Shown piece after piece: positions 50,452-60,625 of a DNA stretch of 64,000 nucleotides. The position numbers were made by a program, and so were the translations under genes. Source of the stretch: a phage; the sequence record PZ534512.1. The stretch is one strand, 5' to 3'. Each line of letters starts with the position of its first letter. Within the stretch, counting starts at the first letter, position 1. The notes under the pieces are model-generated. The model searched no databases. It was not told where the DNA came from and saw only the letters and a program-made list of their open reading frames with translations.

Positions 50452-51879
50452 GTGGTAGAAATTATTCTTTCTCATCTCATATTTGATCAAGCTTATTTTT
50501 CAAAAGTTTGGCCATATATGGATTCAGAATATTTTGAAAGTGGTCCAGCTAAAAATACATTCAAATTAATTAAATCTCATGTCAATGAATATCATAGCGT
50601 TCCATCTATTAATGCGTTAAATGTTGCATTAGAAAATAGTTCATTTACTGAAACAGAATATTCTGGTGTAAAAACACTTATTTCAAAACTGGCTGATTCT
50701 CCGGAAGACCACAGTTGGTTAATAAAAGAAACAGAAAAATATGTTCAGCAAAGGGCGATGTTTAATGCTACGTCTAAAATAATCGAAATTCAAACTAATG
50801 CTGAACTTCCTCCGGAAAAACGAAATAAGAAAATGCCGGATGTTGGTGCTATTCCTGACATCATGCGCCAAGCATTATCAATTTCATTTGATAGTTACGT
50901 TGGTCATGATTGGATGGATGACTACGAAGCACGTTGGCTATCTTATATGAATAAAGCTCGTAAGGTTCCATTTAAACTCAGAATTCTGAACAAAATTACT
51001 AAAGGCGGAGCTGAGACTGGAACACTGAACGTTTTAATGGCTGGCGTTAACGTTGGTAAGTCATTAGGATTGTGTTCATTGGCAGCAGATTATTTGCAGC
51101 TCGGACATAATGTTCTTTACATTTCCATGGAAATGGCAGAAGAAGTCTGTGCTAAGCGTATTGACGCTAACATGCTTGATGTTTCTCTTGATGACATTGA
51201 TGATGGGCATATTTCTTACGCTGAATATAAAGGAAAAATGGAAAAATGGCGTGAGAAATCTACCCTTGGTCGTTTAATCGTTAAACAGTATCCTACTGGT
51301 GGAGCAGACGCTAACACATTCAGGTCTCTCTTGAATGAATTGAAGCTCAAGAAGAATTTTGTTCCAACAATCATTATTGTCGACTATCTAGGTATTTGTA
51401 AATCTTGCCGCATCAGAGTTTATTCAGAAAATAGTTACACAACTGTTAAAGCTATTGCAGAGGAATTGCGTGCTCTGGCTGTTGAAACCGAAACTGTTCT
51501 TTGGACTGCAGCACAGGTCAGTAAACAAGCTTGGGACTCTTCCGATGTTAACATGAGCGATATTGCAGAATCTGCTGGTCTTCCAGCAACAGCTGATTTT
51601 ATGCTTGCGGTCATTGAAACCGAGGAGCTAGCAGCTGCTGAACAACAACTCATTAAGCAAATCAAATCACGATATGGCGATAAGAATAAGTGGAATAAGT
51701 TTTTAATGGGTGTTCAAAAGGGAAATCAGAAATGGGTAGAAATTGAACAAGATTCTACTCCAACTGAAGTGAGTGAAGTAGCAGGTTCACAACAGATTCA
51801 GGCTGAACAGAATCGCTATCAAAGAAACGAATCAACTCGAGCTCAGTTAGATGCTTTGGCAAATGAATTAAAATTTTAG
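50452..51879 (+). CDS. 41: replicative DNA helicase gp41 (DnaB family)
   Basis: 475 aa; Walker A GVNVGKS; GTG start after AAGGAG RBS. Confidence 0.95.
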   Translation: MVEIILSHLIFDQAYFSKVWPYMDSEYFESGPAKNTFKLIKSHVNEYHSVPSINALNVALENSSFTETEYSGVKTLISKLADSPEDHSWLIKETEKYVQQRAMFNATSKIIEIQTNAELPPEKRNKKMPDVGAIPDIMRQALSISFDSYVGHDWMDDYEARWLSYMNKARKVPFKLRILNKITKGGAETGTLNVLMAGVNVGKSLGLCSLAADYLQLGHNVLYISMEMAEEVCAKRIDANMLDVSLDDIDDGHISYAEYKGKMEKWREKSTLGRLIVKQYPTGGADANTFRSLLNELKLKKNFVPTIIIVDYLGICKSCRIRVYSENSYTTVKAIAEELRALAVETETVLWTAAQVSKQAWDSSDVNMSDIAESAGLPATADFMLAVIETEELAAAEQQLIKQIKSRYGDKNKWNKFLMGVQKGNQKWVEIEQDSTPTEVSEVAGSQQIQAEQNRYQRNESTRAQLDALANELKF

Positions 51880-51908
51880 TTTACAAGCTGACAAGACTAT
51901 GGTATAGT
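51879..51908 (+). promoter_or_regulatory. T4-type early promoter
   Basis: GTTTAC-N18-TATAGT overlapping gene 41 stop. Confidence 0.65.
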
Positions 51909-51937
51909 AGTCTTGTTGGTTAAATGAGGAGATTGTT

Positions 51938-52120
51938 ATGGAATTGGTAAAGGTAGTTTTTATGGGGTGGTTTAAGAATGAAAGCATGTTTACTAAAGAA
52001 ATCACAATGATGAAAGATGACGTTCAATGGGCTACTACTCAATATGCTGAAGTTAATAAAGCATTAGTTGAAGCTTTCATTGATGACAAGAAAGTGTGCG
52101 AAGTGGATTGCCGAGGATAA
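51938..52120 (+). CDS. dmd: Dmd antitoxin (inhibitor of RnlA/LsoA)
   Basis: 60 aa; immediately downstream of gene 41 as in T4. Confidence 0.8.
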   Translation: MELVKVVFMGWFKNESMFTKEITMMKDDVQWATTQYAEVNKALVEAFIDDKKVCEVDCRG

Positions 52121-52121
52121 T

Positions 52122-52379
52122 ATGCATATTGTTTTATTTAAACCTACTCCGTATAACGTCAGGAAAAATACTCAATTCAAAGCACTTATTGCAGATACGT
52201 GGGAATTGGTGTTAGATATTCCAGCAGAAGAAAGTCCTCCATTTGGTCGAGTGGAATTTATTAAGTTTGCTGTACGTCCTACGAAGAGGCAGATTCGTCA
52301 GTATAAAAGGTATTTTCGTAAAATCGTTAAGCTAGAGAAACAGTTTGTAACATGTGATTACGCAGAAGTTTTAAAATAG
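52122..52379 (+). CDS. basic RNA-binding-like protein at the T4 61.4 position (TifA-like candidate)
   Basis: 85 aa from ATG after GAGGATAAT RBS; K/R-rich RQIRQYKRYFRKIVK. Confidence 0.4.
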   Translation: MHIVLFKPTPYNVRKNTQFKALIADTWELVLDIPAEESPPFGRVEFIKFAVRPTKRQIRQYKRYFRKIVKLEKQFVTCDYAEVLK

Positions 52380-52381
52380 CT

Positions 52382-52411
52382 GTTTACTTTTGTTGGAAAT
52401 TGAGATACTAT
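52382..52411 (+). promoter_or_regulatory. T4-type early promoter
   Basis: GTTTAC-N18-TACTAT then ctactgaggagattatcATG. Confidence 0.65.
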
Positions 52412-52439
52412 ATAAACATAAACTACTGAGGAGATTATC

Positions 52440-52733
52440 ATGAAAAAATTTATTTTTGCTACAATTTTTACTTTGGCTTCTTGTGCTGCTCAGCCTGCTA
52501 TGGCAGGATATGATAAAGATTTGTGCGAATGGTCTATGACTGCAGATCAGACTGAAGTTGAAACTCAAATTGAAGCGGATATTATGAATATCGTTGAGCG
52601 CGATCGTCCTGAAATGAAAGCTGAAGTGCAAAAACAGCTTAAGTCTGGTGGTGTAATGCAGTATAATTATGTTCTGTATTGTGATAAAAACTTTAATAAT
52701 AAAAATATCATCGCTGAAGTGGTAGGTGAATAA
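52440..52733 (+). CDS. sp: periplasmic protein Spackle-like
   Basis: 97 aa; signal peptide with LASC lipobox-like site. Confidence 0.6.
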   Translation: MKKFIFATIFTLASCAAQPAMAGYDKDLCEWSMTADQTEVETQIEADIMNIVERDRPEMKAEVQKQLKSGGVMQYNYVLYCDKNFNNKNIIAEVVGE

Positions 52734-53347
52734 TGCTTTATCAAATGCACAAGTGTAAAGACACGTACAAATATAAAGGTGCCCAGTGTTATATCATTAA
52801 TCGTGAAAACGCAGGTCCAGGTCATTCGCATCAATCACGGTTTGTATTCGTTAAAAATAATGAAATTATAGCAGTTGCTAATTATATGTTTGTGACCAAT
52901 GATGTTAATCCGGTGCCTTTCACGTATGACAATCTAATGGACTTGGCATATGATTATAATTGGTTTAATCATGACAATTTAGTTCATATTGAAGGCGTAG
53001 GATTTGACATCTCTTATTCTAGTTATTCGTTGTGCCCTATGAGCCGAGCTCATAAAGAGCCTGAATATTTTTCATTTCGTCGGCGTGTAGACTTTAAACG
53101 CAGCACAGAGTATGTCGGTGGAATATTTGTTAAAGATAATCGAATTACTCGCATTATTTATCCTTTGGGCTGTGGTCAAAAAGATATTGATGTTGATTTA
53201 GACTTCACTGAAAATATCATTAATCATATTGCTTCTGTGTATTTTGATATTGATCATAAAATTGTAATATGTGGATATGAATTGCCATCCGAAAAACAGT
53301 CTAAAGTAAATGTTTCTATTGATGACCAAATTTTAATGCTTTTATGA
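52733..53347 (+). CDS. hypothetical protein (204 aa; T4 61.2 position, AdfA-like candidate)
   Basis: TAATG coupling; positional assignment only. Confidence 0.4.
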   Translation: MLYQMHKCKDTYKYKGAQCYIINRENAGPGHSHQSRFVFVKNNEIIAVANYMFVTNDVNPVPFTYDNLMDLAYDYNWFNHDNLVHIEGVGFDISYSSYSLCPMSRAHKEPEYFSFRRRVDFKRSTEYVGGIFVKDNRITRIIYPLGCGQKDIDVDLDFTENIINHIASVYFDIDHKIVICGYELPSEKQSKVNVSIDDQILMLL

Positions 53348-53362
53348 ATAGAGATTAATATG
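53318..53362 (+). repeat. direct repeat copy 1 (gene-junction cassette)
   Basis: attgatgaccaaattttaatgcttttatgaatagagattaatatg. Confidence 0.85.
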
Positions 53363-53716
53363 TATAGTTCTGAATTTTCATATTTAAAAATGGAAAAAAT
53401 TTCATACGATTTCATAGATGAAAAGGTTTATTACAGTTTCCATGAACCACGTTTTAATAGTGAGGTTGGGTTTATTGTAGTAAAAGACAATTTTATTTTA
53501 AAAATATATTCAGCATTAAAGGATTTTCATTACGAAAATATTAACCTAAAATTTAATAAAGAAAACGTTCGTAATTGCGCAGTAACAATTACAGGAAATA
53601 AAGGTACATGTGTTATGCTATCCGATGAAATTAATGATTTGCTAAATGATGCAGAAAATATTACTGCGCCATCTATTGATGACCAAATTTTTAATGCTTT
53701 TATGAATAGAGGTTAA
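53360..53716 (+). CDS. hypothetical protein (118 aa)
   Basis: start and C-terminal coding both lie inside the direct repeats. Confidence 0.5.
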   Translation: MYSSEFSYLKMEKISYDFIDEKVYYSFHEPRFNSEVGFIVVKDNFILKIYSALKDFHYENINLKFNKENVRNCAVTITGNKGTCVMLSDEINDLLNDAENITAPSIDDQIFNAFMNRG

Positions 53717-53720
53717 TATG
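53675..53720 (+). repeat. direct repeat copy 2 (gene-junction cassette)
   Basis: attgatgaccaaatttttaatgcttttatgaatagaggttaatatg; one extra T and one A/G change versus copy 1. Confidence 0.85.
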
Positions 53721-53882
53721 AAAACATATAAAGAATTTATTAAAGAAGATATGGTTGCTGGAGATTCAGGTGGTAATCCTGAAAATATCTCTACTGGAAC
53801 AACATCAGGTGCTGTAGTAAATAAAGGTCCTGAACAGATTCCTAAAAAGAAAAAAGAGGAATCTAAAGAAAAAGAAGAGTAA
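53718..53882 (+). CDS. 54-aa CTS-bearing peptide (candidate packaged internal peptide)
   Basis: N-terminus MKTYKEFIKE then Gly/Lys/Glu-rich tail; GAGG RBS; coupled on both sides. Confidence 0.5.
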   Translation: MKTYKEFIKEDMVAGDSGGNPENISTGTTSGAVVNKGPEQIPKKKKEESKEKEE

Positions 53883-53884
53883 AA

Positions 53885-54913
53885 ATGTCATCAATACCTT
53901 GGATTGATAATGAGTTTGCGTATCGTGCATTGGCTCATTTACCTAAATTCACACAAGTAAATAATAGTTCAACTTTTAAATTACGGTTTAGATGCCCTGT
54001 TTGCGGAGATTCAAAAACCGACCAAAATAAAGCCCGTGGATGGTATTATGGTGATAATAATGAAGGAAATATTCATTGTTATAACTGTAACTATCATGCA
54101 CCAATCGGAATATATTTAAAGGAGTTTGAACCTGATTTATATCGTGAGTATATCTTTGAAATAAGAAAAGAAAAAGGTAAAAGTCGTCCAGTAGAAAAAC
54201 CTAAAGAACTTCCTAAACAACCTGAGAAGAAAATAATTAAATCTCTTCCGTCATGTGTTAGATTAGATAAACTGGCGGAAGACCATCCAATTATAAAATA
54301 TGTAAAAGCTCGTTGTATTCCAAAGGATAAATGGAAATATCTTTGGTTTACAACCGAATGGCCTAAATTAGTTAATAGCATAGCACCGGGAACATATAAA
54401 AAGGAAATACCTGAGCCTCGTCTTGTTATTCCAATTTATAATGCTAATGGAAAAGCTGAGTCTTTTCAAGGACGTGCATTAAAGAAAGATGCTCCCCAAA
54501 AATATATCACTATCAAAGCTTATCCTGAAGCAACAAAAATCTATGGAGTCGAACGAGTTAAAGATGGTGATGTATATGTTCTAGAAGGACCTATAGATTC
54601 ACTTTTTATTGAAAATGGTATAGCTATTACAGGTGGTCAATTAGACCTAGAAGTTGTTCCATTTAAAGATAGACGTGTGTGGGTTTTAGATAATGAACCT
54701 CGTCACCCTGACACTATTAAACGAATGACTAAATTAGTTGATGCAGGAGAAAGGGTTATGTTTTGGGATAAATCTCCCTGGAAATCAAAAGATGTTAATG
54801 ATATGATTAGAAAGGAAGGTGCAACCCCTGAACAAATTATGGAATATATGAAAAATAATATTGCCCAGGGGTTGATGGCTAAAATGCGGCTATCTAAATA
54901 TGCTAAGATTTAA
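53885..54913 (+). CDS. 61: DNA primase gp61
   Basis: 342 aa; N-terminal zinc ribbon CPVCGDS...CYNC; TOPRIM region. Confidence 0.93.
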   Translation: MSSIPWIDNEFAYRALAHLPKFTQVNNSSTFKLRFRCPVCGDSKTDQNKARGWYYGDNNEGNIHCYNCNYHAPIGIYLKEFEPDLYREYIFEIRKEKGKSRPVEKPKELPKQPEKKIIKSLPSCVRLDKLAEDHPIIKYVKARCIPKDKWKYLWFTTEWPKLVNSIAPGTYKKEIPEPRLVIPIYNANGKAESFQGRALKKDAPQKYITIKAYPEATKIYGVERVKDGDVYVLEGPIDSLFIENGIAITGGQLDLEVVPFKDRRVWVLDNEPRHPDTIKRMTKLVDAGERVMFWDKSPWKSKDVNDMIRKEGATPEQIMEYMKNNIAQGLMAKMRLSKYAKI

Positions 54914-55110
54914 ATTAACCCAACTAAAGCAAATGCTAAATCTACGAATGTATCAAGAGTAACTACTGGAATATTAATACCATGTGCAATTGCAACAGGT
55001 GATAAAATAAAGTTCCAGAGTAAAATTCCTACCATAGCAGAAATAGTAAAAGCTATACGCTTTTTATTACCTTTTATGGCATTAATAAGTGCCATTAATT
55101 TTTGTACCAT
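54910..55110 (-). CDS. antisense small membrane protein (66 aa)
   Basis: only intergenic minus-strand ORF; AAGGAGG 4 nt upstream of ATG; two hydrophobic helices; stop overlaps gene 61 stop. Confidence 0.5.
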   Translation of the reverse strand: MVQKLMALINAIKGNKKRIAFTISAMVGILLWNFILSPVAIAHGINIPVVTLDTFVDLAFALVGLI

Positions 55111-55122
55111 ATGTCCTCCTTA

Positions 55123-55147
55123 TTGCTTTATATATTTATTGTATAAT
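55123..55147 (+). promoter_or_regulatory. MotA-dependent middle promoter candidate for gene 56
   Basis: MotA box TTGCTTTA, 11 nt spacer, -10 TATAAT. Confidence 0.55.
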
Positions 55148-55181
55148 TAATCTACTAACCCATGAATTGAAAGGAAAAATA

Positions 55182-55700
55182 ATGGCTTACTTTAATGAAT
55201 GTAGTCAACTGATTGAAGGCGCTGATAAAGCTCAAAATGAATACTGGGATATTCTCGGTGATGAAAAAGACCCGCTGCAAGTTATGCTTGATATGCAGAA
55301 ATCTCTGCAGGTTCGTTTAGCTAAAGATAAACCTGAATATAATCGTCATCCTGATGACTTGGCTACTGCAGGCGAAGTTGTTGATTGGCTGCGCAATCAG
55401 AAAGATTATATTGATGATGAATTCCGCGAACTTCTGACTTCTCTTGGTGGTATGAGCAATGGCGAAAAAGATGCGTCTGCTGTATGGAAACCTTGGAAGT
55501 CACAGCATGGTGAACGCCGTGAAACTTTAATTACTGATTTGTCTCCACAAGACCAGTTGGAAATTAAATTCGAAATGATTGATATTCTTCATTTCGTTCT
55601 GAACATGTTCCAAGGTCTCGGTCTTACGGCTGAAGAAATCTTTAAACTTTATTATCTGAAAAATGCTGAAAATTTCGCTCGTCAAGACCGAGGTTATTAA
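55182..55700 (+). CDS. 56: dCTP pyrophosphatase gp56 (MazG-like)
   Basis: 172 aa from MAYFNECSQ; AAGGAAAAATA RBS. Confidence 0.85.
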   Translation: MAYFNECSQLIEGADKAQNEYWDILGDEKDPLQVMLDMQKSLQVRLAKDKPEYNRHPDDLATAGEVVDWLRNQKDYIDDEFRELLTSLGGMSNGEKDASAVWKPWKSQHGERRETLITDLSPQDQLEIKFEMIDILHFVLNMFQGLGLTAEEIFKLYYLKNAENFARQDRGY

Positions 55701-59565: not shown

Positions 59566-60312
59566 ATGAAGCTGTCTAATAATCAAATTCGTAAAATTAA
59601 ACGTCGTCTAGAGCATACCCAGGCATCTGCAAAAAGACGTTCTAAAGATTTTAACTTAGACTTCAATTACATTAAGAACATTTTAGATCAGAAAGTTTGT
59701 GCTTACTCAGGAGAACCTTTTGATAATCGTGTTGAAGGAGAGAAATTATCATTAGAACGTTTTGATAATAACGTTGGATACATTAAAGGGAATGTTATTG
59801 CAGTAAAGAAAAAGTATAATACATTTCGTTCTGATTATACTTTAGAAGAGTTGATTGAAAAGCGTGATTTATTTGCTTTGCGAATTGGTCGTTCATCTGC
59901 GAAAAAAGTTCATAAACTAAATTTAGATGAAAAGAAATGGGCTAAAATCAAAAAGACTTATAATCAAATTAAAGCTATACAGAAAAAGCGTGAAAATCGA
60001 ATTGAACACATTTCTAAGCTTTCTAAATCAAAACAGACCTCTGATATTAAGCTAAGGATTATAGCACTTAAAGCTCGTATTGATGGTTCTCGCATAGCAG
60101 AAGGCGCTGAAGTTGTTAAATTGAACGTTCTTCTTAAAGGCTCGGATTGGAAAACTGTGAAAAAGTTGTCAGAAGCAGAAATGCAATATGATATGTGTGA
60201 TAAAATTATTCAAGGTGTAGAGCGGTATCAAAACTTGTCTTTTATTGATAAACTTAAACTGAAAAGAGGATACCCGCTAAATTGTTCAATTTTTAAACTT
60301 ATCCGAGGATAA
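59566..60312 (+). CDS. srd: Srd-position protein (248 aa)
   Basis: between modA and dda.1 as in T4; positional assignment. Confidence 0.45.
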   Translation: MKLSNNQIRKIKRRLEHTQASAKRRSKDFNLDFNYIKNILDQKVCAYSGEPFDNRVEGEKLSLERFDNNVGYIKGNVIAVKKKYNTFRSDYTLEELIEKRDLFALRIGRSSAKKVHKLNLDEKKWAKIKKTYNQIKAIQKKRENRIEHISKLSKSKQTSDIKLRIIALKARIDGSRIAEGAEVVKLNVLLKGSDWKTVKKLSEAEMQYDMCDKIIQGVERYQNLSFIDKLKLKRGYPLNCSIFKLIRG

Positions 60313-60313
60313 T

Positions 60314-60625
60314 ATGGTTTATGTATATGCGATAGTTTACCGAGACAAAGACGGATTTACAGCGCCAGTTCCACTTGATGAACATCGTCCTGCTGTATTT
60401 TTTGAATGGAATATTGCTGATAAAGTATTTACTACTCTTAAAGAGCAGTATCGACTAGCTTTAGGTAAGGGAATTCCAAGATTAGTTGAGACTCCACGTA
60501 AATTTTGGTTTAATAAAATAGAAGTTAAACATGTTAAGCCTGACGTAGACACACAAAGATTATATCAGCGAATTTTAGATACTGGGCGTATTGTTAGTAT
60601 ACCAATTGCAGGGAATTTACGATGA
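60314..60625 (+). CDS. hypothetical protein (103 aa; dda.1 position)
   Basis: ATGA overlap with dda. Confidence 0.55.
   Translation: MVYVYAIVYRDKDGFTAPVPLDEHRPAVFFEWNIADKVFTTLKEQYRLALGKGIPRLVETPRKFWFNKIEVKHVKPDVDTQRLYQRILDTGRIVSIPIAGNLR

Follow-up and report, generated by a model that had tools for sequence, protein, structure and literature searches.

Genes and repeat at the locus

The DNA analysed here (the window, 64,000 nucleotides of record PZ534512.1) belongs to a Tequatrovirus (T4-like) genome whose best relatives are 96-99% identical to it, and it runs counter to the T4 map. The genes here are, in order, 41 (helicase), dmd (anti-RnlA), 61.4, which is tifA (anti-ToxN), sp, adfA (61.2), an open reading frame of 118 aa, 61.1 and 61 (primase), a region called a possible "anti-TA island" by Srikant et al. 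2022 (PMC9391042). Gene 61.2 is adfA, Anti-DarT factor A (PMC9391042, PMC11257639), and the anti-DarT activity of AdfA / T4 gp61.2 is credited to LeRoux et al. 2022, as cited in these same two papers. The features on which our argument depends are the following.

52440-52733, + strand: sp (spackle, 61.3), the left neighbour, annotated as sp in relatives
52733-53347, + strand: adfA (T4 gene 61.2, Anti-DarT factor A), 204 aa here, Pfam PF23813 with E 1e-130
53291-53354, + strand: breakpoint interval; T4-like on its left, about 4.5% diverged from G10400, and identical to G10400 for about 700 nt on its right
53315-53362, + strand: upstream junction copy, 48 nt; codons of the adfA tail, then GAGA as a weakened Shine-Dalgarno, then the ATG at which the 118-aa gene starts
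53331-53334, + strand: run of four T, five in all relatives examined; a private -1 frameshift of adfA
53360-53716, + strand: the 118-aa gene (RB32ORF033c, phrog_4122), an optional module with an AdfA-family Pfam match
53672-53720, + strand: downstream junction copy, 49 nt, canonical; codons SIDDQIFNAFMNRG, Shine-Dalgarno GAGG, TAA, T and the ATG of 61.1
53718-53882, + strand: gene 61.1 (54 aa, phrog_1823), the right neighbour, whose start codon is the junction's final 3 nt
53885-54913, + strand: gene 61 (DNA primase), the conserved right-hand anchor

The first-pass annotation had placed a direct repeat at 53318-53362 and 53675-53720. This repeat is real and starts 3 nt further to the left. The first 20 nt of the two copies are identical (TCTATTGATGACCAAATTTT), and there are two differences beyond them: the run of four T in the upstream copy corresponds to five T at 53688-53692 in the downstream copy, and an A at 53354 corresponds to a G at 53712. 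The boundaries are sharp, since the 60-nt flanks on each side match at 15-21 of 60 positions, which is the random level. The reading frames that had been described along with the repeat were borne out as well. The 204-aa frame ends in SIDDQILMLL before its stop, the 118-aa frame ends in SIDDQIFNAFMNRG before its stop, and the 54-aa frame begins where 61.1 is placed above.

The canonical junction is the 49-mer TCTATTGATGACCAAATTTTTAATGCTTTTATGAATAGAGGTTAATATG, which encodes 14 tail codons (S-I-D-D-Q-I-F-N-A-F-M-N-R-G) followed by TAA, T and ATG. The Arg-Gly codons AGA-GGT of this tail hold the Shine-Dalgarno GAGG for the next gene, so that one overlapping unit both ends the upstream protein and provides the start signals for the downstream gene. 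This agrees with the earlier description of each copy as the C-terminal residues of one gene plus the ribosome binding site and start codon of the next. Three gene families from four genera (Tequatro-, Mosig-, Dhaka- and Gaprivervirus) have this conserved peptide as their tail, and in these four genera the junction precedes at least five different genes, namely 61.1, 033c, the Gaprivervirus-type 033c, a tifA-like gene and an RB69ORF033c-like gene. When the three tail-bearing families were compared by hhalign, the E-values ranged from 4e-11 to 8e-9 with the tail and from 0.03 to 0.3 without it, and as judged from these alignments the tail appears to be essentially the only part that is strongly common to them. 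A degenerate scan for the tail in IMG/VR gave matches confined to primase-bearing contigs, with 1-2 per contig. Two shorter resemblances were seen in the window, at 52113-52124 (the dmd/tifA junction) and at 60305-60316, where GAGGATAATATG is identical at 11 of 12 positions to the junction end GAGGTTAATATG. In the Dhaka- and Gapriverviruses a tifA-like gene follows directly after the junction.

The frame difference between the copies had been put down to an extra T. This proved to be the wrong way round, as the five T of the downstream copy are the normal state and it is the upstream copy that has lost one, privately to this genome. The eight other genomes with both genes (L006, L036-L041) have five T in the upstream copy too, and their adfA is full length, with 208-210 aa ending in FNAFMN(R/K)G. 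Every record with the two-gene layout in the genome comparison spans 1052 nt, against 1051 nt for our query. We therefore attribute the loss of the adfA tail to a -1 homopolymer change. The frameshift replaces the conserved FNAFMNRG by LMLL, and the adfA stop now lies 12 nt upstream of the next ATG. The Shine-Dalgarno ahead of the 118-aa gene reads GAGA here and not GAGG. The loss of the T may be either a real mutation, inactivating or modifying, or a homopolymer sequencing error.

The 118-aa protein matches the Pfam AdfA model (PF23813) with 32.2 bits (cutoff 27) and an E-value of 8.8e-8. The match pairs residues 22-118 with profile positions 113-211 only, that is, with the C-terminal half of the model. 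All 5 database clusters carry PF23813, and the records of RB32, RB14 and RB51 already annotate the gene as 'similar to gp61.2'. By BLASTP, adfA and the 118-aa protein are 29% identical with an E-value of 0.003, and hhalign of adfA against 033c without the tail gave an E-value of 0.031 over 43 columns. Given a dN/dS of 0-0.38 among its alleles, the 118-aa frame is a real gene under purifying selection. The structure model of the protein has a pLDDT of 64.8, built on a shallow alignment of 5 close clusters, and a BFVD fold search with this weak model returned a single significant match, to a protein of 118 aa at 36% identity. No mention of RB32ORF033c was found in the papers searched. The phage T2 'naturally lacks an adfA homolog' according to PMC11257639. 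The T2 records PV958097.1 and PV648363.1 carry the 118-aa AdfA-family gene with its full tail.

The immediate surroundings of the locus also vary. At 54910-55110, on the - strand, there is a 66-aa frame like RB32ORF030w/dam.1, followed by gene 56 (55089-55700), as in RB14 and RB7. T4 carries dam after gene 61, which makes this a second gene-content polymorphism adjoining the locus. The match of the 54-aa gp61.1 to a phrog_2086 protein of 154-158 aa is limited to the last ~46 residues of that longer protein, which occupies the 61.1 position in Mosigvirus and more distant relatives (L007, L008, L012-L014, L023, L030, L031). By this alignment a longer gene may have left the T4-type 61.1 behind as a remnant or as a domain split off from it. 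In several GenBank records 61.1 is called a 'major capsid domain-containing' or 'head morphogenesis' protein, which looks like mis-annotation.

Presence and absence of whole genes at the junction

We aligned the locus with its relatives, as the first-pass annotation had proposed, and found the 118-aa gene to be present or absent precisely between the repeat copies. In T4, T6, RB55, PST and others there is a gap of exactly 357/358 bp relative to the window and one junction copy is left. This single copy joins 61.2 directly to 61.1, and in T4 it is identical to the downstream copy of the window. In the T4 sequence (L001) the single 49-mer lies at 1816-1864, joining 61.2 to 61.1 with both flanks intact. 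The 60 rows that were classified are an evenly spaced sample of 537 matching records, and they include four layouts.

Class A, sp-adfA-033c-61.1: the window, RB32, RB51, G10400; 18 of 60 rows
Class B, sp-adfA-61.1: T4; 19 of 60 rows
Class C, sp-033c-61.1: RB14, T2, HY01; 15 of 60 rows
Class D, sp-61.1: RB7; 4 of 60 rows

Records of class B span 693-697 nt, where the query has 1051 nt. Both genes and two junction copies (class A, at least 80% coverage) are present in about 155 records, and the body of 033c was found in 299 phage records. T-even populations are thus polymorphic for the module. A near-isogenic pair differing by the module alone was not found among the compared genomes; flank identity to the window is 97.7% for the best genome without the 118-aa gene and 99.0% for the best genome with it.

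The two layouts that lack adfA have a joint of a different kind. In classes C and D (RB14, RB7) sp is followed by TAAT and then by TAGAGG(T/C)TAATATG, which is the terminal 14 nt of the junction; the stop codon of sp thus adjoins a 14-nt form of the junction. This 14-mer is otherwise absent from the 64-kb window. The layouts with both genes or neither, and those with adfA only or 033c only, could thus be paired as the reciprocal outcomes of crossing over at the junction's last 14 nt (TAGAGGTTAATATG), as we infer from their arrangement. The sp/033c and sp/61.1 joints carry 1-4 extra bases compared with a simple crossover of the present-day sequences. A deletion through microhomology (TGAAT or AAT) was tried as the origin of these two joints and rejected, as the joints that it predicts are off by 1-4 nt.

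A parallel case was found in Gaprivervirus. In VR7, RZ and ECML-359, and in IMG/VR L020 and L022, sp is followed by a 145-aa gene, a 033c-like gene of 117-122 aa and a 73-aa tifA-like gene. The 145-aa gene belongs to the JS98-ORF030c/C6-ORF33 family (phrog_8539). It and the 033c-like gene both end in the junction, with the copies ~360 bp apart. In VR7, L020, L022 and ECML-359 the two copies surround the 033c-like gene; in L021 this gene is precisely absent and one copy is left, an upstream-type junction. This gene-sized indel at the same junction is an independent replicate of the one in Tequatrovirus. A further loss was seen in ECML-359 (L044 1499-1547, compared with VR7, L042 1500-1767), where the stretch lost runs exactly between two start codons, at an AATATG(A) microhomology, and takes the 73-aa tifA-like gene with it; the gp036 homologue now begins at the junction's ATG.

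The window itself has a mosaic breakpoint at the upstream copy. Compared with G10400 there are 38 differences in 52454-53290, then the T indel at 53330, and then none until 54025. Given 38 differences on the left and none on the right, the breakpoint falls in 53291-53354, essentially the upstream junction copy. The window and G10400 both have an A at 53354, and their 033c bodies are identical. The adfA body of the window differs from that of G10400 at 28 of 582 nt and is closest to those of two class B genomes, T4 and L009, with 10 and 12 differences in 582. For one interval placed at random in 2.3 kb, the chance of overlap with the cassette is about 5%. The breakpoint is one single instance, and with recombination so frequent in T-even phages the overlap could be due to chance. 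The adfA alleles (T4-like or RB51/RB69-like) and the 033c alleles occur in all combinations. A chimeric adfA was seen in 215Ecol030PP (L045 428-1063), with an RB69/Mosigvirus-like body and T4-like last ~25 codons and junction. This arrangement implies a crossover just upstream of the tail.

Constraint, chance and regulation as possible sources of the repeat

The repeat consists of the conserved AdfA-family tail and the start signals, and its identity is thus mostly explained by selection on the peptide. The 49-mers of different genera, and those of the two Gaprivervirus paralogues, show 6-8 differences, most of them synonymous, and share 40-43 of 49. From these comparisons about 40-42 of the 49 identities would be due to constraint on the peptide and the start site and not to recombination. 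Constraint alone gives this level, so the repeat exists without the need for recombination; recombination exploits the repeat and does not create it. In Tequatrovirus the mean difference between the tails of adfA and 033c is 1.5 nt, which cannot be distinguished from the variation within each family, and their synonymous sites are identical. Tails of one gene family taken from different genera are 6-7 nt apart. For the few sites involved, this points to recent exchange or conversion within the genus. The idea that the two tails generally evolve in concert was rejected, since it holds in Tequatrovirus and fails in Gaprivervirus.

Such constraint could suggest another history, an old tandem duplication kept by purifying selection alone, with no role for the repeat in the gain or loss of genes and a polymorphism due to unrelated events. 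The conservation of the tail in three families and four genera fits this history, as do the distant tails that are still 40-43/49 alike and the weak homology between the adfA and 033c bodies signalled by Pfam and hhalign. It accounts for the existence of the repeat. It does not account for indels that end exactly at the repeat in two genera, nor for the mosaic breakpoint at the upstream copy, and the Tequatrovirus paralogues are identical at synonymous sites despite bodies with 29% amino-acid identity. We consider selection without any part for recombination to be an unlikely explanation of the locus. We also considered whether the repeat could be a coincidence in AT-rich sequence or an artefact of the assembly. 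The region is AT-rich, and nothing else speaks for such an origin. The 17-mer ATTGATGACCAAATTTT, allowing up to 2 mismatches, has two sites in 64 kb, both of them the repeat copies, where about 0.09 chance matches are expected from shuffled sequence, and the layout with two copies is present in the ~155 independently sequenced genomes. Chance and artefact are therefore excluded as the source of the repeat.

The repeat could also be thought of as a duplicated regulatory element, whether a MotA-dependent middle promoter, a cassette like the PeSLs (promoter-early stem-loops) or an RNA hairpin for translational coupling. In the cassette TGCTTTT and TAATAT do stand 12 nt apart, much like a MotA box with a -10 element, and a 10-bp hairpin lying partly over the Shine-Dalgarno can be drawn. 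The middle promoter was rejected because TGCTTTT fails the strict MotA-box scan, TGCTT(T/C)A 11-13 bp upstream of TAnnnT, a pattern that misses the cassette and matches 12 other sites in the window. A brief literature search found no published support for a middle promoter at the junction. None of the 24 sigma-70-like promoter sites found in 51800-55200 overlaps either copy, and no terminator-like site was found in either of them. The hairpin is weak (minimum free energy -5.6 to -6.1 kcal/mol, z -1.0 to -1.6) and was rejected as well, as each substitution in 17 variants breaks a pair and 0 are compensated. Membership in the PeSLs was rejected on the missing sigma-70 promoter and terminator; the repeat is not a PeSL because the promoter and the stem-loop are missing and it is mostly coding. 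Taken together, a regulatory element seems to us a very improbable source of the repeat. As an observation apart from the junction, the 12 matches to the strict pattern in the window compare with 2.2 expected, and 9 of them are on the + strand. They are consistent with being real T4 middle promoters in the replication-gene region, as far as the pattern can indicate.

Proposed mechanism and comparison with known systems

We think it likely that the repeat is the shared 3' end of adjacent AdfA-family genes and that recombination between its copies adds or removes one gene. A gene ending in the tail supplies the translation start signals for whatever comes next. Two such genes in tandem give rise to a direct repeat of ~49 bp with a spacing of one gene length, and homologous recombination between the copies, either within a genome or between co-infecting phages, would lose or gain exactly one gene. 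Both neighbours would stay intact and translatable. Class B would arise from class A by deletion between the 49-nt copies. The first-pass annotation had taken a frame flanked by direct repeats as a sign of a module gained or lost by homologous recombination, and the precise presence and absence supports this proposal. The recombination itself would presumably be of the T4 UvsX type or copy-choice slippage, and this is our inference, as is the direction of the individual events. The threshold of homology for efficient recombination in T4, attributed to Singer et al. (1982), is reportedly ~50 bp, which the length of the junction fits.

A broader and more speculative proposal, which we offer tentatively and think somewhat doubtful, is that the junction serves as a universal adaptor in the T-even phages of four genera. 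Genes ending in the tail could enter or leave by recombination, or be exchanged between phages during co-infection, and always be translated like the new downstream neighbour. This would be a cassette system without an integrase, whose design was partly selected for exchangeability. The exchange could possibly go through excised circles of 357 bp, like the PeSL mini-circles. If such an adaptor were at work, it would diversify the anti-toxin repertoire (anti-DarT, anti-ToxN).

The gene content of the anti-TA island (dmd, tifA, adfA) helps to decide which host defences a phage overcomes, and a 49-bp exchange junction would explain how counter-defence genes are reshuffled without breaking the expression of their neighbours. 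The 118-aa gene is a candidate anti-DarT factor, found in ~300 genomes including T2, where it may contribute to DarT resistance. Like AdfA / T4 gp61.2, the flanked gene has the tail and a match to that Pfam model, here to its C-terminal half. It differs in being without the N-terminal half, and an activity of its product against any DarT is putative.

Among the closest known systems are the PeSL cassettes, through which T4-type phages shuffle gene modules (Arbiol et al. 2010, PMC2839356; Comeau et al. 2014, PMC4122927). The PeSLs of RB49 and phi1 are gene-boundary repeats ending in a Shine-Dalgarno and a start codon (PMC2839356). Our junction is like them in being a short gene-boundary repeat in a plastic T4-type region that ends in the Shine-Dalgarno and start codon of the next gene, in having copies that flank genes variable between close relatives, and in that recombination between the copies explains the indels. 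However, PeSLs are intergenic and have a strong sigma-70 promoter and a stable stem-loop, whereas the junction has no promoter, terminator or conserved hairpin. Given that 42 of its 49 nt are codons of the upstream gene, the junction is not intergenic, and unlike the PeSLs it is tied to the C-terminal tail of one protein family and to a single locus.

T4 is also known to recombine readily at short homologies in the anti-TA island, with amplifications and deletions that include an amplification of dmd-tifA (Srikant et al. 2022, PMC9391042). Those events resemble ours in the region affected, in the gene-sized gain or loss between short direct repeats and in the one copy left at the joint. They differ in that the laboratory events used unique microhomologies of 6-10 bp, while here the repeat is 49 bp long and conserved across genera, and the polymorphism is a standing natural one. 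A similar comparison can be made to unequal crossing-over of tandem paralogues, where adjacent and probably related genes share a segment and the number of genes changes. In the ordinary form of that process the homology is not limited as it is here to the last 49 nt, with bodies that can barely be aligned (E 0.03 without the tail). Because the homology is confined to these 49 nt, the products are gains and losses of whole genes and never chimeric genes. Recombination at short homologies in the plastic regions of T-even phages is well established, so the advance is incremental; the junction is a clear new example of a known process.
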